Made by a program: the position numbers and the translations under genes. DNA of 20,000 bases, taken from the sequence record DRR723986_3489; one strand, given 5' to 3'. The notes under the pieces were generated by a model, which saw only the letters and a program-made list of their open reading frames with translations, searched no databases and was not told the DNA's origin. Of this stretch, positions 6,471-14,238 are shown in pieces; within the stretch, counting starts at the first letter, position 1; every line of letters begins with the position of its first letter.

Positions 6471-6500
6471 AAAAATAGCACCGAGTGTTTACTCGATGCT
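6471..6500 (-). terminator. Intrinsic terminator after the lipoprotein gene
   Basis: Minus strand AGCATCGAGT-AAAC-ACTCGGTGCT-ATTTTT: 10-bp stem with one G-U pair and a U tract, about 28 nt after the stop. Confidence 0.75.
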
Positions 6501-6528
6501 GTCTAAACTTGATCCTGTGCTCCTAAAG

Positions 6529-9048
6529 CTATTTCAACGTGATAACTATATTTGCTTGCCCTCCTGCTGCCAAAGATCCGGCGATCCACCCAGGAATAGC
6601 GTCTGGACACTGCCCACTACACCAAGTCGCTCCTAAAGAATAATAATAACTGTTTTGATAAATATAATATCGTGTGTCACCAAGTGGCCATCCGTAATAA
6701 CTTGGTGGGTACCCTCCATTTAACCAAGAAACGGTTCTCCCCTCATAGGGATGTTTATAGGACGTTTTGAATCCGTAGGTTGTCACGGTATAAGATTTTG
6801 CATCTGGATTGACCGGGACAATCACTAGTGCATGTACACCATTTGAAAATGCACCGGGTACTACTTCATATAAATAATCCTTCGCCGTCACAGGGACATT
6901 AAGTATGATTTTCTTCGGATCGTTATTGACTTTCACTTTCCCTATCACTTCTTCTCGTAGGACCCATTCCCCTGAACCAGGAACTCTGAAATAAACACTG
7001 GCTTTGATCTCTTCCTCTCCTTCTATGATATCTCCATCCAATGCTTGATAATTAATCGCATTGCCTCGAGTAGTTGCAAATGTGTTTTTTCCGTCAAACA
7101 TTCCGTACTTCCCTTCTGTGGACCATTCCACTTTGTACTCTAAGGCTGATGTACTGACAATGTCATTGATATTATCACTTCGCTCCAAGTAAAGTCGCAC
7201 GGAATGCTTCTCCTTCCCGCTAAGCGTAATGCCATCTGGCTTCATCAGCAGTTTTTGCTTTTTGACGTTTATCGTTGCGGTAGCGTCACCTATCAATGAT
7301 AAGTCAGCACCTTTTTTAATAAAAACTTCTACCGTAACTGTTTCAAAATTATTTTCAGCTAGGTCGGCCGGATTTACCTCACTCCTGAAATTGACAGTGG
7401 CTGAAGTTGTTTCTATTTTAGTGCCTTTGGACGCTCCGGCTGCAATCAAGCCATATTTACCAGTAGTGGACCAAACGTAAACAAACGACTGTCCATCTGA
7501 CAGCTGTGTTTGCGTGTCCGCTTTCAATGCCACGTTAGCAAATGGAACAGTAGATTCTTTTCCAGGATTAATTTTGACTTCAGATCGACGCGCTTTTGCT
7601 GTGAACTCCACAATCCGGTCTGAAAGGATCAGCTCAGTGGTGAGTTTGCCCATATCCAAAAGTTTCACGCACATCTCTACCGCCTTGATTACTTTCAGAT
7701 ATTTTTCAACAGCAGCAGCATTAGTATAATCACGATTCAAATCAATCCAAGTAGGCTTATTCAGGTTTTTATACTTATCTACAACTTTTTGAATAAATAA
7801 TTTTTGAAATTCTTGGCCTCCCTTATCAACCATAAATTTCACGAATTCTTCAATCCCCTTTTTAAAGTTGCCACTTAGAACTAGATCCATGATTTGTGGA
7901 GACTGAGAAATTGTAGCTTCGAAAGCCTCAAAAGCAAAACCAGCATCTCCAGTTCCTTTGATCTCAGAAATTATCTCAGTAATAATGGGTAGAGCATAGT
8001 CCACATAAAATTGCTTTAGCATCAATTTCTGCCAAGCAGCATTTTCTTCAGTGGTCATGGTGAGAGAACCGGCAGGCCTAAAAGCAGAACCAACTATGCG
8101 TACCTTATAAATCGCCTCATCTTCATTATCTCCCAAAGACAATAAAATCGGCTCTGATTCCTTTTTTGCATATTCCATTCCCTTACCAGAGATCTGATCC
8201 ACAATAGTACCAAGCGTACTGCTAAATCCTTTGGTACCATCTACGTCATGAATAGATTTAGCTGCTTGAGTTGGCCCAATTGTCGGGATCAAAATCACCT
8301 CTTCTTTAGATCCTTTTGCCTTATAGGCAGTTTTATAGATAAATGCTTTCCCTAGTCTACGGTAGTGATTGGCTATTTTTATATTCAGGAAATCATGTTC
8401 GAAAATTTGCATACCGCTTTGAAAACCAGTAGGGTCCACGTTAATTTGCCGCGCTCGCATATCCAAAACTTCTCCATCCTTACTATACTCAGTCAGCAAA
8501 GCTGTCAAGTCCTGCTCAAACTTGAGATTTTCGAGATAAAGTAAATCGTTCTTAATTCCTGTAGCCACTTTTGCCTTAAATTCCTCATAGCCAGGCAGCG
8601 GCATAGATGGGTTCAAAAATTCAGTGACCACCGCATCGGGTAAGTAAAATACTCCAGCTCCCAAGTAGAATAGCGCCTGGGCGGTAGTCTCAGCATTTAT
8701 AGATTTATTTTTTTCGTTGAGAACACCCATTAAAATCAACTTATTCGACTCATCGAATAAAAAAGCCAATCTAGTTACACTATCTGGCAAAATTGCTTTG
8801 GATTTGCCATCAGCAGCTACCGGAAATGTCATCAATCCCGTAGAGACCGTTGCCTTGGATAAATCAAAATTGACACCTTGAGGGAATGAAACTGCTACAT
8901 CCACAGTTTGTGCAAGTGGGGAGGATCCTCCAGTAGGAGGTTTTGTAGGATCTGGATCAGGGTCTATAGGACTTTCCGGATCGCTACATGCAAATGCCAG
9001 TATCGAAAAAAGGATGCAAATCCATTTAGTGAGTTGTAAATTTTTCAT
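6529..9048 (-). CDS. Large uncharacterised lipoprotein (839 aa), probably surface-exposed, with two tandem beta-rich repeats
   Basis: Lipobox ILAFA-C21, then acidic SDPES and a PDPDP/PPTGGSS linker, a helical central region, and duplicated WST(T/E)GKYG-containing beta-rich units. Confidence 0.85.
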   Translation of the reverse strand: MKNLQLTKWICILFSILAFACSDPESPIDPDPDPTKPPTGGSSPLAQTVDVAVSFPQGVNFDLSKATVSTGLMTFPVAADGKSKAILPDSVTRLAFLFDESNKLILMGVLNEKNKSINAETTAQALFYLGAGVFYLPDAVVTEFLNPSMPLPGYEEFKAKVATGIKNDLLYLENLKFEQDLTALLTEYSKDGEVLDMRARQINVDPTGFQSGMQIFEHDFLNIKIANHYRRLGKAFIYKTAYKAKGSKEEVILIPTIGPTQAAKSIHDVDGTKGFSSTLGTIVDQISGKGMEYAKKESEPILLSLGDNEDEAIYKVRIVGSAFRPAGSLTMTTEENAAWQKLMLKQFYVDYALPIITEIISEIKGTGDAGFAFEAFEATISQSPQIMDLVLSGNFKKGIEEFVKFMVDKGGQEFQKLFIQKVVDKYKNLNKPTWIDLNRDYTNAAAVEKYLKVIKAVEMCVKLLDMGKLTTELILSDRIVEFTAKARRSEVKINPGKESTVPFANVALKADTQTQLSDGQSFVYVWSTTGKYGLIAAGASKGTKIETTSATVNFRSEVNPADLAENNFETVTVEVFIKKGADLSLIGDATATINVKKQKLLMKPDGITLSGKEKHSVRLYLERSDNINDIVSTSALEYKVEWSTEGKYGMFDGKNTFATTRGNAINYQALDGDIIEGEEEIKASVYFRVPGSGEWVLREEVIGKVKVNNDPKKIILNVPVTAKDYLYEVVPGAFSNGVHALVIVPVNPDAKSYTVTTYGFKTSYKHPYEGRTVSWLNGGYPPSYYGWPLGDTRYYIYQNSYYYSLGATWCSGQCPDAIPGWIAGSLAAGGQANIVITLK

Positions 9049-9071
9049 GGTAAAAGTAGTTTATACTTCTC

Positions 9072-9102
9072 CATCGAAATCTTTTACAATAGGTCATCAA
9101 AA
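9072..9102 (-). promoter_or_regulatory. Candidate ECF-sigma promoter, copy upstream of the lipoprotein
   Basis: Minus strand TTTTGATGAC-N16-CGATG; CGATG ends 23 nt before the ATG. Confidence 0.7.
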
Positions 9103-9143
9103 CTTTAAAAAATAATTTCCATATAAAAACTTAGGCATTCCTC

Positions 9144-9881
9144 TTACTTGTCTTCTTTCTCCAATATGGAAATTAGCATTGTTGACTCTTCTCGATCAGC
9201 GGCATCGAGCAAAGGAATAGCTGCTTCAAAGTTACCTTCTTTGACCATAATCAGTCCTAAGTACCAATTGGCATCCTTGTAAAAATAACTTTCCTCTGTG
9301 CCCGTGATATTGCCTAATAGCTGCTTACTTTTTTGAAAATCATCTAATTCCAGATAAGATAGTCCTAAGAAGTAATTAAGTGTATCACTTGAAGGATTAT
9401 CGGCTAATAACTTGTCCCATCGATTCACAGCTTCACTGTATTCACCTAATTTGAAATCCACCATACCTCTGGCAAATTCATAATCGCCTGCTGATGACAT
9501 CGTAGAAATCAGCCCTGGATCGGTATGATAGTAGGACTGAAAAATCTTTTCCTGAGGGGAAGTGGATTGAGTTGCCCACCAGATTCCAGCCAGAATAAAC
9601 AGACTGATAGAGGCCGCTATTGCCCAATACATCAGGTGAATCTTGTTTTTTTCTGGTTGGACCTTTTCTATGTCCATATGGAATACATTCAGTTTTTCCT
9701 TCAATGCCGCTCGTTGAATGCCCTCTCTGAGATCTCGAATTTCTTCCACATTGATTCTAAAATCTTCCTCCTGACTCAGACGGGCTTCCACTTTTGCTAT
9801 ACTAGTGGAATCTAGATTCCCATCGAGGTAATTTTCAATCAACTCAAAGTCTTCAGACGATATTTGCGCTTTATTATTCAA
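9144..9881 (-). CDS. Putative anti-sigma factor: N-terminal helical domain, single TM, C-terminal TPR domain
   Basis: IENYLDGNL...VEARLSQEEDF N-terminus resembles anti-sigma domains. TM YWAIAASISLFILAGIWW. TPR-like YFLGLSYLEL and ANWYLGLIMVKEGNFEAAIPLL. ATGA overlap with the sigma gene. Confidence 0.7.
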   Translation of the reverse strand: MNNKAQISSEDFELIENYLDGNLDSTSIAKVEARLSQEEDFRINVEEIRDLREGIQRAALKEKLNVFHMDIEKVQPEKNKIHLMYWAIAASISLFILAGIWWATQSTSPQEKIFQSYYHTDPGLISTMSSAGDYEFARGMVDFKLGEYSEAVNRWDKLLADNPSSDTLNYFLGLSYLELDDFQKSKQLLGNITGTEESYFYKDANWYLGLIMVKEGNFEAAIPLLDAADREESTMLISILEKEDK

Positions 9882-10450
9882 CTCTCTTTTTCTCCTTCCT
9901 GTATGATATTTTTAAGCTTCTGCATGCAGCGATATTTGTTGTTTTTGGCCGTTTGGGCTGTCCAACCCATCGCCCTTGATACTTGAGTCAACGATTCTTT
10001 TTTGTAATAAAACCTTGTCAGAAGTTCATGACAATCCTTGCCAATTTTCTGAAAAGCATATTCTATTTTTAAATAGTACGCTTCCTTATCATGTACTTCA
10101 AGATTCGGAAAATCGGTTATATCTCGCTCTTCAAGGGGTACTGTCTTTTTTGTTTTAGACGATCTTAAGTGATCCAACCATTTGTTCTTAGCAATTTGAA
10201 ATAGGTAGCCAACGAGGGCAGATTCATTTTCCGGTGCAAATTTCCCCGATCTGATATTCGTCCAGAAAGAAATAAATGCATCCTGAAATATATCTTTTGC
10301 CTGATCTTCACTACCACTATTTCTCAGTATAAAATGCTGCACTTTTGGAAAACCTAACTTATATATCGACTGTAACACAACATTATCGTTATTGATAATG
10401 GCCTTAGTGAGTTCCTCCTGTGAATAAGAATTAAAAATATCCTTTGGCAT
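9878..10450 (-). CDS. ECF-type RNA polymerase sigma-70 factor
   Basis: Region 2 (AKDIFQDAFISFW...YLFQIAKNKWLDHLR) and region 4 HTH (CHELLTRFYYKKESLTQVSRAMGWTAQTAKNNKYRCMQKLK), no region 3. Start is ATG 10450 or TTG 10468. Confidence 0.93.
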   Translation of the reverse strand: MPKDIFNSYSQEELTKAIINNDNVVLQSIYKLGFPKVQHFILRNSGSEDQAKDIFQDAFISFWTNIRSGKFAPENESALVGYLFQIAKNKWLDHLRSSKTKKTVPLEERDITDFPNLEVHDKEAYYLKIEYAFQKIGKDCHELLTRFYYKKESLTQVSRAMGWTAQTAKNNKYRCMQKLKNIIQEGEKES

Positions 10451-10598
10451 ACTTGTTACAATTGCCAAGAAGATACAATTAAATGTATTTCAGCTCAAGA
10501 ATATTTGAGGAAATAGATCAATAGACATATGCTCAGCTTCTAAATATTAGGATTGAGATTATTACTTCCCTTCACAATTAAGATTGAACTCATTATAT

Positions 10599-10626
10599 CA
10601 TCGGCCAAAGGCAAAAATGTCATCAA
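10599..10626 (-). promoter_or_regulatory. Candidate ECF-sigma promoter, copy upstream of sigma/anti-sigma
   Basis: Minus strand TTGATGAC-N15-CGATG. Its TGA (10625-10623) is the CHAT stop codon. Confidence 0.65.
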
Positions 10627-13600
10627 CCCTTGGGATTTTTGATTAGTTTAAAAACAAACCAACTTCCAATCAAACCAAGAAGAATTAAAGTGACTATCCA
10701 ATACATAGGAACCGGTTTCTCCAACGCTAAGGGCTCAGTAGATCCCATGACAATTAATCCTGCCCAGAAATTCGGAGCTAATGCGCGACTTTCGGCAGTA
10801 GATAGGTAATTCAGCTTCGCGACTCTTAATGCTTGATCTTTAGTCAAGCCCTTGGCAAGATTTTCATAAAAATCCATTGCAATATCTGAGCTAGCATGTT
10901 CGTCTATTTTCCAGATACCCATCAGCATGCTTTTACTTCCTGCATAGTTAAAAGCATGCGCCAGCGAAATCATCCCCTCGCCTGGTGAATAGGAAGGTTT
11001 TCCTGATTCACACGCAATGAGTACCGCCAATTCCGAACTCAAATCCATCGCATAAATATCCTTCACGAAGAGCGAGTTCTCGTCTTCTGGATGATTCGTT
11101 GACTTCGCGAAAAATAAACGAGAGAGATTAGGACTAATATTATTCGATTCTGCATGAGTTCCGATATGGATAATCTTGTGCTTTCCGGCCTCGAGTTTAA
11201 ATCTATTCACAGTTGATTTTTCATCTGTAAAAATCCTACCTCCAAAAATTTTAGAAATCCCTGCGACAAGTTGTTTGGTAAAAGGTTGGGGCAAAAGAGT
11301 CAGATAAGCACGATCAAGGGTCAGCGAATCTTTCACTTCGCTGAGGTAGCTCTCTTTCATTACATCAAAAAACCCGGGAGCAAAAGCCACGAATTCGGAT
11401 TCATACGAAGCTGATTTCCTACCATAATCAAACAAAAGTGTGCTATAATGGTAAGAAAAGCTATGCGATGCAATCAGGCTTTTTGTCGCTAATTCTGAAT
11501 AACGATGAATGCGTTGTGGGGTCAAAATCTCAAAACTCAAATTAAATAACAGACCATCCGGAACGATCAGCACATGCTCAGTAGTTATGTAGGGCTCTAA
11601 AGGCATCCAAAGTCGGTCATATAGCTGCTTCAAATCAGCGGTCGATTGCTTTTCATCAGACCAATTGTCTTGCAATCGGTTCAAAATCGTTGAAAGGCCT
11701 TCAAACTCCAACTCTATAAGGCTCTTCTGATCTTGCTTCATTACTAATGCCTTCAGCTCCGTTCCAACAAAAAAATATCGGATCACAGAAGTGTTATCAG
11801 GGATTGATTCCTGGATTTTATCAATAGATCTTTCCAAACTTGCGTACCTGAAATCATAATAGGTTGAGTATTGAGTCCTTAGGTTTTCCACAAATCTCTC
11901 CCATTCATGATTCGCTAGGAGATAATTTTGCACCCCATCTACTTCATTATTAAGAGCATTTTCAAGTTTTGATTTTAATGCTTCTTCTTCCTCAAAAATC
12001 TCAATTGGCACATTTGCAAAGCGCAGCTGTCCATTTTGTTCTAGCCTCAGACGGATCTTTTGATATATCCCAGATTCGTGTAAGCTTAGCAAATCCTCAA
12101 CATAAGACTCGTCGTTGGTCTTTTGATAAAGCTCAAAAGTCAGTTGCTTCAAGAAATCAAAATAATCCTTATTGTCCTGAATCAGCAGATTTACATCATC
12201 CTCGGATTCCAAAAATGTTTTCCTCCTCTCCAGAAATTCAACTCCTTCGTCTAATTCACTTACCAGAGACTTCAAAAAGGCTGGACTTCTTTCCGTTTCC
12301 AAGTAATATTGAGACTTCACTTTAAGCAAAATTGCCTGAGGCTTTTTCAGATTTACACGGATAGAGTCCAGTCTTTCGGTTTGATTTACAAGATGCATTT
12401 TCAGGATTTGCAATGCCTCTATACTCAGATTTTGAGCCTTTCTGTAATTTCCAGAAATGAATGAAACATCTGCCATGCTCAATGATTGATCAAAGAGTTG
12501 GAGACTAGTCCCATTTCCAATGGTATTTAAATATTGATATGCCTTAGAGGCAGTACTTTCCGCTAGACTTTGGTTTCTATTTTCGGCTAAAAACTTACTA
12601 TAGTTAGTTAGAAACTCGAGGTAAACAAGGTCAAAATCACCGCCAAGTACATTTTGGTATAGTGCATCTGCCCGTTGATAGTATGTCAAAGCTAATTCAT
12701 CATTTCCCTCATAATCTTCCACTCTCGCCAAGGCATTCCATCCGTCAGCCTCCCAAAAGTCTCGGTTTCCAGCAATTTGCTTCAGTCCATCCAAACCCGT
12801 CTGAAGGATAGCTCTGGCATCTTCCATTTCAAACATTTCATAGTATAGCTGACCCAAGAGAATTTTGGAATTGATTACTTCTTTATTGGCTAACCCAAAT
12901 GAACTCAACTTCTTAGAATGAGCATATTCAAGCAGATTTTTAGCTTTTTGAAAATTCCCAAGTTCTTTATAAATGCCTCCAAGGTTATCTACCGCTTGTA
13001 GGTAAAACTCTAAAGTTTTATTCTTTTCCGCTGGATCACTCAATGAATCTTGATAGAAAACAAGATTACTGAGCACCTTTTCCATAGACTGAATTGCTTG
13101 GCTCATATGGCCTGAAGCACTCTGAACCCCGGATAGATTATTGTAAATCAGGGCTGTTCGATAATACTTATTTCTTGGAGTTTGGTTCAGCAGAGAGATC
13201 GCCTCAAGGCATTGTTCATAATAATACTCTGCTGAATCTAACTTGGAAGAAAAATAGGAAAGGTTGCCCAGATAGCTATTTGTGAGGTAAACCGACTCTG
13301 GATCTGGGTCTTTTAGGAGGAAATCAAGTGCCTCATGGAGATGCATTTTGGCAGATTCCAGATCCATTCGATTGATAGAATAGGCGCCAAGATTCATCTT
13401 GATCTTTCCCTTTTCCTTATCACTAACTACTCCTTGGCTCTTTATCGCAGCATCGAATGCTTTGAGTTCAAACTGATATGCTGATTCTGTGTCTCCAAGG
13501 TATTCATACCAATTGGCCGCAGTCATCCAAAGGTCTTTTTGATAGATAGGGCCAGGCATTTGCTTTTCCCATCCCAAAATCAAATCATCCATCATTTGAA

Positions 13601-13850
13601 TTGCCACTGGATAAGCATGAATCTCTAGTAATGCTCTTCCATATACTTCCAAATAATCAGGTATTACTTCCTGTTGCTTATTCTTTACTACTTCTGAAAG
13701 AACTTGCTTAAGCTCTTTCAACGCAACCGCTGCTTGATCCATGGAGATCAAACTATCTAAAGACTTTATTTTCGAATCTAAAGTCTGCCCTTCTACCAAA
13801 AAAGACAAAAGAACGAAAAGTAAAGAAGTTGCATATTGAAGAGGTTTCAT
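10623..13850 (-). CDS. TPR-CHAT domain protein (caspase-hemoglobinase fold protease), signal peptide plus C-terminal TM anchor
   Basis: Signal peptide MKPLQ...SFLVEG|Q, many TPR-like helices, CHAT motifs LIVPDGLLFNLSFE, IIHIGTHA (His899), VLIACESG (Cys947), GEGMISLAHAFNYAG, WKIDE, PNFWAG, and a hydrophobic C-terminal helix followed by KLIKNPKG. Confidence 0.93.
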   Translation of the reverse strand: MKPLQYATSLLFVLLSFLVEGQTLDSKIKSLDSLISMDQAAVALKELKQVLSEVVKNKQQEVIPDYLEVYGRALLEIHAYPVAIQMMDDLILGWEKQMPGPIYQKDLWMTAANWYEYLGDTESAYQFELKAFDAAIKSQGVVSDKEKGKIKMNLGAYSINRMDLESAKMHLHEALDFLLKDPDPESVYLTNSYLGNLSYFSSKLDSAEYYYEQCLEAISLLNQTPRNKYYRTALIYNNLSGVQSASGHMSQAIQSMEKVLSNLVFYQDSLSDPAEKNKTLEFYLQAVDNLGGIYKELGNFQKAKNLLEYAHSKKLSSFGLANKEVINSKILLGQLYYEMFEMEDARAILQTGLDGLKQIAGNRDFWEADGWNALARVEDYEGNDELALTYYQRADALYQNVLGGDFDLVYLEFLTNYSKFLAENRNQSLAESTASKAYQYLNTIGNGTSLQLFDQSLSMADVSFISGNYRKAQNLSIEALQILKMHLVNQTERLDSIRVNLKKPQAILLKVKSQYYLETERSPAFLKSLVSELDEGVEFLERRKTFLESEDDVNLLIQDNKDYFDFLKQLTFELYQKTNDESYVEDLLSLHESGIYQKIRLRLEQNGQLRFANVPIEIFEEEEALKSKLENALNNEVDGVQNYLLANHEWERFVENLRTQYSTYYDFRYASLERSIDKIQESIPDNTSVIRYFFVGTELKALVMKQDQKSLIELEFEGLSTILNRLQDNWSDEKQSTADLKQLYDRLWMPLEPYITTEHVLIVPDGLLFNLSFEILTPQRIHRYSELATKSLIASHSFSYHYSTLLFDYGRKSASYESEFVAFAPGFFDVMKESYLSEVKDSLTLDRAYLTLLPQPFTKQLVAGISKIFGGRIFTDEKSTVNRFKLEAGKHKIIHIGTHAESNNISPNLSRLFFAKSTNHPEDENSLFVKDIYAMDLSSELAVLIACESGKPSYSPGEGMISLAHAFNYAGSKSMLMGIWKIDEHASSDIAMDFYENLAKGLTKDQALRVAKLNYLSTAESRALAPNFWAGLIVMGSTEPLALEKPVPMYWIVTLILLGLIGSWFVFKLIKNPKG

Positions 13851-13940
13851 TTAGATAAGAGGCTTCTTTGAAAAAAGGATGCAAATTATATCCCTTAAAA
13901 GTTAGAAATAATCCGGGTGAAAAATGCCCAGACAAATTCA

Positions 13941-13970
13941 CATCGGTCAAAATGAATAAAGTCATCAAAA
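13941..13970 (-). promoter_or_regulatory. Candidate ECF-sigma promoter, copy upstream of the CHAT gene
   Basis: Minus strand TTTTGATGAC-N15-CGATG, about 90 nt before the CHAT ATG. Confidence 0.65.
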
Positions 13971-13984
13971 AAGTATTAAAACAC

Positions 13985-14011
13985 AAAAAGCCCCACATTT
14001 CTGTGAGGCTT
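13985..14011 (-). terminator. Intrinsic terminator after tRNA-Leu
   Basis: Minus strand AAGCCTCACA-GAAA-TGTGGGGC-TTTTT: GNRA loop and U tract. Confidence 0.8.
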
Positions 14012-14014
14012 ATG

Positions 14015-14098
14015 TACCAGGAGCGGGAATCGAACCCGCACGGCCTTACGGCCACAAGATTTTAAGTCTTGCGTGTCTACCTATTCCACCATCCCGGC
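14015..14098 (-). tRNA. tRNA-Leu (anticodon TAA)
   Basis: GCCGGGA/TCCTGGT acceptor stem, CAAGA-CTTAAAA-TCTTG anticodon arm, long variable arm GGCC-GTAA-GGCC, GGTTCGATTCC T-arm. CCA not encoded. Confidence 0.97.
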
Positions 14099-14162: not shown

Positions 14163-14165
14163 TTG

Positions 14166-14238
<73 letters not shown>

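Follow-up and report, generated by a model that had tools for sequence, protein, structure and literature searches.

Organisation of the locus

A 20,000-nucleotide stretch of DNA from sequence record DRR723986_3489 (hereafter the window), whose source is an Algoriphagus-like bacterium, carries a 7.5 kb island of four genes. These encode a protein with tetratricopeptide repeats (TPR) and a caspase-like CHAT domain, a sigma factor of the extracytoplasmic function (ECF) kind, a protein with one transmembrane (TM) helix and TPRs, and a lipoprotein. An earlier interpretation made from the letters alone (the sequence-only reading) had described these as four co-oriented genes of a signalling system, and all four open reading frames (ORFs) were found where it had placed them, on the minus strand between positions 6529 and 13850 (Table 1). 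The observed arrangement of genes and motif copies is real and far beyond chance, and the wiring of the circuit then proposed, that is the unit, its promoters and its variable output, is well supported. We tentatively read the locus as a self-contained envelope signalling island in which the CHAT protein could be the site-1 protease that frees the sigma factor from the TM-TPR protein as its anti-sigma, which is a serious possibility among several readings.

Table 1. Positions of the island genes and of the sequence features within and beside the island.
Feature	Position	Strand	Description
TPR-CHAT protein	10623-13850	-	1075 aa; Pfam CHAT and TPR families
ECF sigma	9878-10468	-	196 aa from TTG; TIGR02937, Sigma70_r2
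TM-TPR protein, probable anti-sigma	9144-9881	-	245 aa; one TM helix and TPR hits
Lipoprotein, putative sigma output	6529-9048	-	839 aa; lipobox-like ...LAFAC
Promoter-like motif copy 1, GATGAC-N15-CGATG	13941-13966	-	91 nt before CHAT start codon
Promoter-like motif copy 2	10599-10624	-	begins inside CHAT stop codon; upstream of sigma gene
Promoter-like motif copy 3, spacer 16	9072-9098	-	24 nt before lipoprotein start codon
Terminator-like hairpin, downstream island end	6477-6500	-	3' of lipoprotein gene
tRNA-Leu	14014-14098	-	upstream border of island
Terminator-like hairpin	13988-14011	-	directly 3' of tRNA-Leu
tRNA-Gly	14165-14238		with tRNA-Leu marks upstream island border

The TPR-CHAT protein

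The match to the CHAT domain (PF12770) spans residues 739-1037 and scores 138.5 bits (E 4.1e-40), the cut-off being 24, and several TPR families match over residues 220-475 (Pfam). In the AlphaFold model (predicted local distance difference test, pLDDT, 88.6; predicted template modelling score, pTM, 0.80) a TPR superhelix (about 23-605) is followed by helices (616-669) and an alpha/beta CHAT domain (687-1037); model and fold matches thus show the superhelix and CHAT domain in one chain that characterise TPR-CHAT proteins. The top ranks of a Foldseek search with this model were DdvA (8rw5, E 1.2e-12) in first place, Csx29 and separase. When the model was aligned with VIA-align, its residues 184-1039 matched Csx29 with a Z of 25-28, the separase protease domain gave a Z of 25.6 with a root-mean-square deviation (rmsd) of 2.8 over 295 residues (model 582-1044), and DdvA 8rw5 a Z of 20.6 with an rmsd of 6.0 over 587 residues (DdvA residues 371-991).

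Every one of the 72 aligned CHAT relatives retains H899 and C947, in agreement with the earlier choice of C947 as the residue to mutate. From the motif context of the two residues (GTHA, ACE) and the fold match, we take them to be the catalytic pair. In the same 72-protein alignment, conservation is 0.32-0.46 over the first 350 residues and reaches 0.65-0.74 at residues 901-1050, the CHAT domain being the most conserved part and the N-terminal TPR region the least.

Membrane topology is commonly assigned by the positive-inside rule. The CHAT protein begins with a short signal-like hydrophobic stretch, and hydropathy scans revealed a single C-terminal hydrophobic helix (1047-1071) followed by the basic tail KLIKNPKG, as well as a single helix of this kind, with a lysine-rich stretch ahead of it, in the TM-TPR protein (81-104). 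By this rule, the bulk of the CHAT protein and the TPR part of the 245-residue protein are both predicted to face the periplasm, and both proteins to be tethered to the inner membrane. According to model and hydropathy, only about ten residues lie between the end of the CHAT domain (about 1037) and the start of the membrane helix (about 1047-1049).

The sigma factor and its candidate anti-sigma

Over residues 43-187 the sigma factor reaches 66 bits with TIGR02937 (sigma70-ECF; cut-off 42.9), and it matches Sigma70_r2 with an E of 8e-10 (Pfam), which places it among the ECF (group 4) sigma factors. Its nearest solved chains are the ECF sigmas SigL and RpoE. Alignment with the closest relative suggests that the true start is the ATG at 10450, residue M7.

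The sigma gene is coupled to the next one, as the TTG start of the TM-TPR gene overlaps the sigma TGA stop codon as TTGA. The TM-TPR protein has TPR hits over residues 135-192 and matches no other family (Pfam). Its predicted layout comprises a cytoplasmic N-terminus of 80 residues, the TM helix at 81-104, a DPGLxTxM stretch at 121-128 and a periplasmic TPR part at 135-230. No part of the protein is better conserved than the DPGLxTxM stretch, which separates the membrane helix from the first TPR; among 69 homologs D121, G123 and M128 are invariant, and P122, L124 and T126 are nearly so. When juxtamembrane motifs were compared between CHAT-linked and CHAT-less relatives, the periplasmic domains of the latter proved entirely different. 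Furthermore, genes next to related sigmas encode proteins with the same N-terminal pattern and quite different periplasmic domains, which fits a modular sigma-binding head. From its coupling and position, its topology and its co-occurrence with the sigma factor, the TM-TPR protein is the probable anti-sigma of its neighbour.

A 367-residue protein beside a related ECF sigma (L026:8679-9782, minus strand) combines a similar N-terminal head and TM helix with a trypsin-like domain (GNSGGP) in place of TPRs, with no CHAT gene nearby. This protein is another candidate for a protease-bearing anti-sigma.

Distribution of the module

The sequence-only reading had suggested that CHAT-sigma neighbourhoods probably recur in Bacteroidota and that a survey around the sigma factor would reveal CHAT and TM-TPR partners beside a variable fourth gene. 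Such a survey was made with one genome per species and, from the best 80 of 141 relatives, yielded 79 distinct loci whose sigma factors are 41-56% identical to that of the window. Partners were called with phmmer by searching the window proteins against all ORFs of these loci (E<1e-20). A TM-TPR homolog was present in 77/79 loci and a CHAT homolog in 75/79, and by their record titles the loci belong to Cyclobacteriaceae (Algoriphagus, Aquiflexum, Cyclobacterium and others), Chitinophagaceae and Flavobacteriaceae, so that co-occurrence and recurrence both hold. Three loci (L100, L113, L129) end at contig borders, one of which (L129) keeps a CHAT fragment of 210 residues, and a fourth (L114, Cyclobacterium) has neither the TM-TPR nor the CHAT gene and is a decayed module, a deletion remnant. 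In this remnant (L114:10043-10866) the motif and a sigma gene truncated at about residue 152 run into a fragment of an outer-membrane-like target gene. No intact sigma of this group without both partners occurred among the 79 loci. The usual gene order is sigma, TM-TPR, CHAT, contiguous and on one strand, with the CHAT gene first in the lineage of the window.

The fourth gene is variable, as had been anticipated. Since the lipoprotein family is present in only 24/79 loci, all of them in Cyclobacteriaceae, the trio can be regarded as the invariant core of the module, whereas the outputs vary.

In an initial look at 41 relatives, the sigma factor was found at E<=1e-20 in 12 of them, and 2/25 same-genus genomes have it. 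Outside the genome nearest to the window (G001, which shares 100% of the window's sampled words), 15 sigma hits were recorded, and only the same-genus one (48% identity) is surrounded by CHAT, TM-TPR and lipoprotein genes; the other 14 (29-37% identity) are other ECF sigmas with no CHAT gene within about 10 kb. Most CHAT paralogs occur in other contexts, because just 3 of 20 more distant CHAT genes of the order have such a sigma/TM-TPR pair nearby. Among 401 evenly sampled Bacteroidota genomes (>=90% complete), a TM-TPR profile had matches at E<=1e-25 in 14, and in 8 of these at E<=1e-60. The module is therefore widespread but patchy.

Several individual arrangements were recorded as well. In one Algoriphagus locus (L088) the complete CHAT-sigma-TM-TPR module stands twice, one copy after the other, at the same chromosomal site, and in two Flavobacteriaceae loci (L145, L156) a second CHAT paralog directly follows the first. 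CHAT matches number at least 20 in one genome of the same order (G026; L084:1-8853 and other contigs), among them a head-to-tail row of four CHAT genes, and four of its stretches (L066, L067, L073, L084) have no sigma nearby. Contigs titled uncultured Limnohabitans, Citrobacter and Alteromonas (L086, L129, L137) carry the Bacteroidota-type module, and in L086 the PRA-PH flank is 88% identical to that of the window. These three are probably mis-binned or mislabelled contigs of metagenome-assembled genomes.

The promoter-like motif and its targets

Copies of the motif GATGAC-N15/16-CGATG precede the CHAT, sigma and lipoprotein genes, in line with the earlier claim of one shared upstream motif. 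Three matches occur in the window against 0.01 expected, and 0/200 shuffles reach three. In the 5 Mb nearest genome the motif occurs exactly three times, always at the island sites, with one match for the backwards control. As about three matches are expected by chance in 5 Mb from base composition, the finding in this genome is the clustering in the island and not the total number. The related loci show the conservation of the motif, with 157 exact matches in 67/79 of them, 148 on the strand of the sigma gene. In the same 1.40 Mb the reversed motif gave 0 matches and other spacers 0-4. The extended consensus reads tTTGATGACATTTT...tTtCGATGTa, and an exact copy lies within 450 nucleotides upstream of the sigma ORF in 30/79 loci, a one-mismatch copy in 12 more. 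The motif is thus a conserved candidate for a sigma-type promoter.

With these data the simplest objection can be weighed, namely that the four genes are chance neighbours and the motif a chance or non-promoter repeat. The promoter role of the motif is indeed read from sequence, which leaves this objection some room. However, the trio recurs in 75-77 of the 79 loci in three families, and the 157 motif hits contrast both with the empty reversed control and, in being so largely confined to the strand of the sigma gene, with any random scatter, so that we regard chance as extremely improbable.

The first ORF downstream of a motif copy was a sigma gene in 29 cases, a lipoprotein homolog in 19, a CHAT gene in 10, a TM-TPR gene in one and another gene in 74, with none in the remaining 24. 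Among the 74 other targets are 23 beta-lactamase-fold lipoproteins (PF00144), 12 outer-membrane-like proteins of about 392 residues and 8 unknown lipoproteins. Further targets include a YadA-head/Peptidase_S74 protein, a 1559-residue type IX substrate, and an S8 subtilase and an M23 peptidase that both have type IX secretion system (T9SS) tails. A signal-like N-terminus was found in 58/74 by a strict heuristic; most of the other 16 show a signal by eye, and 2 look like spurious ORFs. In our reading, the sigma factor would recognise the motif, autoregulate and drive a local, variable set of exported proteins. The earlier proposal that it amplifies its own circuit and induces a surface lipoprotein fits the places of the three window motifs, taken as promoter candidates.

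The target list also bears on a different role for CHAT, as an output or maturation enzyme that processes co-regulated exported proteins or degrades foreign periplasmic proteins while the TPR part of the anti-sigma itself acts as the sensor. Both the placing of the motif ahead of CHAT, seen in the window and in 10 target assignments elsewhere, and the make-up of the regulon, whose members are exported proteins and include several hydrolases, agree with such a role. Yet the outputs are interchangeable, as the lipoprotein illustrates, whereas CHAT is never missing from an intact module, its absences being explained by contig ends or decay. In addition, with so short a tether to the inner membrane, a membrane-protein substrate is a better fit than targets that are soluble or lie in the outer membrane. 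On balance, an output role for CHAT appears unlikely.

An exact 17-nucleotide repeat occurs at 13870-13886 and 9005-9021, both times 51-55 nucleotides after the motif, with one copy in the CHAT leader and the other inside the signal-peptide codons of the lipoprotein gene. It was not found after the motifs in the 79 related loci, and it may be the relic of a duplicated cassette of promoter plus gene start.

The lipoprotein

The hydrophobic N-terminus of the lipoprotein ends in ...LAFAC, and an acidic, proline-rich stretch follows the cysteine. This stretch may correspond to the surface-export signal of Bacteroidota lipoproteins, which it resembles. The protein had no match in Pfam or NCBIfam, and the best score in a protein atlas search was 0.78, below the lead threshold. 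Its model, of moderate quality (pLDDT 75.9, pTM 0.49), has beta-sandwich domains and a series of Ig-like domains, with helices in the middle (333-474). Foldseek and VIA-align gave generic Ig-like beta-sandwich matches for residues of about 490-710 (Z 8-9.7), among them adhesins, pilins and phage decoration domains.

Island borders and variability

The flanks of the island are housekeeping genes. On one side lie the genes for SecA, DapF, a PRA-PH-family protein and an MscS-type channel, and on the other those for tRNA-Leu, tRNA-Gly, a PAS-LuxR regulator and MutS. The sequence-only reading had regarded the module as bracketed by terminators. This is true of the downstream end, where the hairpin 6500-6477 follows the lipoprotein gene, but not of the upstream end, since the hairpin 14011-13988 directly follows tRNA-Leu and is the terminator of that tRNA gene rather than part of the module. 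The 100-residue ORF at 13753-14055 (minus strand), which spans tRNA-Leu as well as the CHAT leader, matches no family and is most probably no gene.

In five of five complete same-genus genomes that are free of the module, the MutS, PAS-LuxR, (MscS) and PRA-PH genes are adjacent and the site is otherwise intact, and no motif was found in these five genomes. Syntenic relatives that carry the module were compared with the window, and the flanks MutS (86-90% identity), PRA-PH (86-88%) and PAS-LuxR (66-72%) stand in contrast to CHAT (39-57%), sigma (48-56%), the TM-TPR protein (33-44%) and the lipoprotein (24-75%). Mosaic combinations also occur, such as a locus (L091) with a 75% identical lipoprotein beside a 41% identical CHAT protein. 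Presence and absence, the contrast in identity and these combinations together indicate that the module is an accessory, fast-diverging and recombining island at a tRNA-adjacent site. No tRNA-derived direct repeat was found flanking the island, and no integrase among the window ORFs.

Comparison with known systems

The closest studied system is DdvA/DdvS of Myxococcus xanthus, of which the window trio is a split, two-protein variant. According to the passages of PMC11506125 that deal with it, one chain of DdvA holds, fused together, an anti-sigma domain, a TM helix and the periplasmic TPR-CHAT region, and RseP degrades DdvA after removal of the TPR-CHAT region, whose bulk blocks RseP. The CHAT site is in a resting state, and cleavage by it is only proposed, as self-cleavage in trans. 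The same passages describe the DdvS regulon as a CBASS (cyclic oligonucleotide-based antiphage signalling system)/CRISPR (clustered regularly interspaced short palindromic repeats) island and, table S7 aside, report DdvA-like proteins only from Myxococcota and one Comamonas.

To the extent that these passages describe DdvA/DdvS (PDB 8rot, 8rw5), it shares with the window an ECF sigma, a single-pass membrane anti-sigma and a periplasmic TPR-CHAT region with a His-Cys dyad, and there too a site-1 role followed by RseP has been proposed for CHAT. The differences are equally clear. DdvA is one polypeptide with a CHCC zinc anti-sigma domain, whereas the window encodes the anti-sigma candidate and the TPR-CHAT protein in two separate genes, the former without such a motif or family match, so that the joining of zinc anti-sigma and TPR-CHAT in one polypeptide that defines DdvA-like proteins is lacking. 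Unlike DdvA, the window CHAT protein has its own signal sequence and C-terminal membrane anchor; DdvA for its part lacks the three-helix CHAT motif, and the sequence similarity between the two is marginal (E 0.66). Moreover, the window motif marks only local genes for exported proteins, in contrast to the regulon of DdvS as described.

Type III-E CRISPR systems offer a second parallel. As outlined in the relevant parts of PMC10028731, Csx29 cleaves Csx30, an inhibitor of a sigma factor (CASP-sigma/RpoE) that has binding motifs in its own locus, so that the type III-E craspase (Cas7-11, Csx29, Csx30) resembles the window in having a TPR-CHAT protein and a sigma with motifs in its own locus. Taken as a whole, the TPR-CHAT body also finds its best structural match in Csx29. 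The craspase acts in the cytoplasm under RNA guidance, whereas the window has no Cas7-11, and the earlier statement that cas genes and an array are absent stands: no cas family was found among the 16 window ORFs scanned (Pfam/NCBIfam family searches), and the search for a CRISPR-like array gave just two short tandem repeats. In addition, the window sigma reaches only 32.1 bits with the CAS_III-E_sigma model, below its cut-off of 100. The module thus shares the logic of DdvA/DdvS and type III-E and is a member of neither, being split, CRISPR-free and non-zinc, with a conserved candidate promoter of its own and a putative regulon of exported proteins. Separase resembles the window CHAT protein in the fold of its protease domain and adjoining helical region, but is eukaryotic and cytoplasmic or nuclear, with no link to sigma factors.

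In Escherichia coli, the membrane anti-sigma RseA of the autoregulated sigma-E is removed by site-1 (DegS) and then site-2 (RseP) proteolysis. The circuit proposed for the window would follow the same sequence with an autoregulated sigma, a logic that is also summarised in the parts of PMC10028731 concerned with it. The E. coli site-1 protease, however, is a PDZ serine protease activated by misfolded porins, whereas a cysteine protease of caspase fold, equipped with a large TPR sensor, is the candidate in the window, and no homology of the TM-TPR protein to RseA was found.

In full-text literature searches, DdvA/DdvS was the one anti-sigma with a periplasmic TPR-CHAT region to have been characterised, as far as the passages in PMC11506125 define it. 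None of the papers they returned treats a Bacteroidota module of sigma, anti-sigma and periplasmic CHAT in split form, the supplements of PMC7826278 and table S7 of PMC11506125 lying outside their scope, and the main text of the ECF reclassification paper PMC7826278 contains neither 'CHAT' nor 'caspase'. The sequence-only reading knew of no experimental characterisation of such systems; this is correct for the split form in these searches, but the fused relative DdvA/DdvS has been partly characterised, as the passages on it in PMC11506125 attest.

Proposed mechanism and its rivals

In the proposed mechanism, the co-translated single-pass TM-TPR protein would hold the ECF sigma at the inner membrane, and the exported TPR-CHAT protein would stay on the same membrane through its C-terminal helix. 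As only about ten residues separate the CHAT domain from this helix, the short tether would put the His899-Cys947 site next to the juxtamembrane DPGLxTxM of the anti-sigma. The fast-diverging N-terminal TPR superhelix would sense a periplasmic signal and activate the protease, whereupon CHAT would clip the anti-sigma at site 1, and an RseP-type site-2 protease together with cytoplasmic proteases would release the sigma factor. Two genes of the site-2 protease family Peptidase_M50 (PF02163) are present in the nearest genome. Free sigma would then read the three GATGAC-N15/16-CGATG promoters, exerting positive feedback on the module and switching on the surface lipoprotein. That CHAT cleaves the anti-sigma is an element we infer, as we do the binding of sigma by the TM-TPR protein, the signal and the role of the lipoprotein.

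Several results weigh against this mechanism. No anti-sigma family was matched by the first 84 residues of the TM-TPR protein, the 25 families listed for 69 members (Pfam) all being of TPR type, and a PDB profile search with the N-terminus returned no anti-sigma chain, the best hit being an unrelated protein (E 0.036). A class I or zinc-binding anti-sigma domain (HxxxCxxC, zf-HC2, RskA) is likewise absent: the HxxxCxxC zinc motif found in DdvA does not occur in the protein, and its N-terminal 80 residues hold no cysteine. No fused TM-TPR/CHAT form was seen among the longer TM-TPR relatives, where 3 hits were all TPR-only, although this is weak evidence. None of the four proteins matched a PADLOC-DB 2.0 defence model at E up to 0.01 (0 families). 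In DdvA, dyad mutants behaved as wild type under the conditions tested and no CHAT cleavage was seen, as stated in the portions of PMC11506125 that treat them. Finally, the CHAT gene lies behind the motif of the sigma factor and is the third gene of the sigma operon in most loci, a place that fits a co-inhibitor or an output.

The first of these two roles would make CHAT a co-inhibitor or sensor partner rather than the site-1 protease, covering the anti-sigma's periplasmic part in the way RseB shields RseA until a signal removes CHAT or makes it cleave itself, after which another protease or RseP would attack the anti-sigma. Co-transcription of CHAT with sigma and anti-sigma in most loci (SIG-ASF-CHAT) is the usual place of an accessory negative regulator, and the blocking of RseP by the TPR-CHAT region of DdvA, with the proposed cleavage being self-cleavage in trans, agrees with this role, as given in the passages of PMC11506125 concerned. 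A purely steric role would nevertheless leave unexplained why the His-Cys dyad is invariant (72/72) and why the CHAT domain is the best conserved part of the protein, and we consider it improbable that CHAT is a co-inhibitor or sensor partner and not the site-1 protease.

Significance

Cleavage of the anti-sigma by CHAT could also serve a more specific purpose. The trio may form an envelope innate-immunity sensor built on caspase logic, in which the TPR superhelix would recognise a foreign periplasmic protein from a phage, bacteriocin or predator, CHAT would cut the anti-sigma at DPGLxTxM, and the sigma factor would drive a local, strain-variable arsenal of surface and secreted proteins, comprising Ig-like lipoproteins, beta-lactamase-fold proteins, M23 and S8 hydrolases and fibre-like proteins. 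Such a function is a speculative and quite doubtful extension of the site-1 reading. If it were true, the tRNA-adjacent presence and absence, the mosaicism and the 40-57% identity beside flanks of 86-90% would be the marks of an arms race.

The split form of the module offers practical advantages for the study of these systems. Work on DdvA left open whether the caspase-like domain makes the first cut that frees the sigma factor, and what the trigger is. Here the protease and its candidate substrate are separate proteins and could be deleted, mutated, tagged and mixed independently, and the sharply conserved motif, as the candidate promoter of the sigma factor, would provide ready-made reporters. 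Furthermore, the module occurs in cultured Cyclobacteriaceae and Flavobacteriaceae and not only in Myxococcota. If the proposed mechanism is true, a caspase-fold protease would join the short list of site-1 proteases in ECF signalling, and CHAT-sigma control, so far tied to CRISPR and CBASS defence, would extend to a CRISPR-free envelope response with variable surface proteins.

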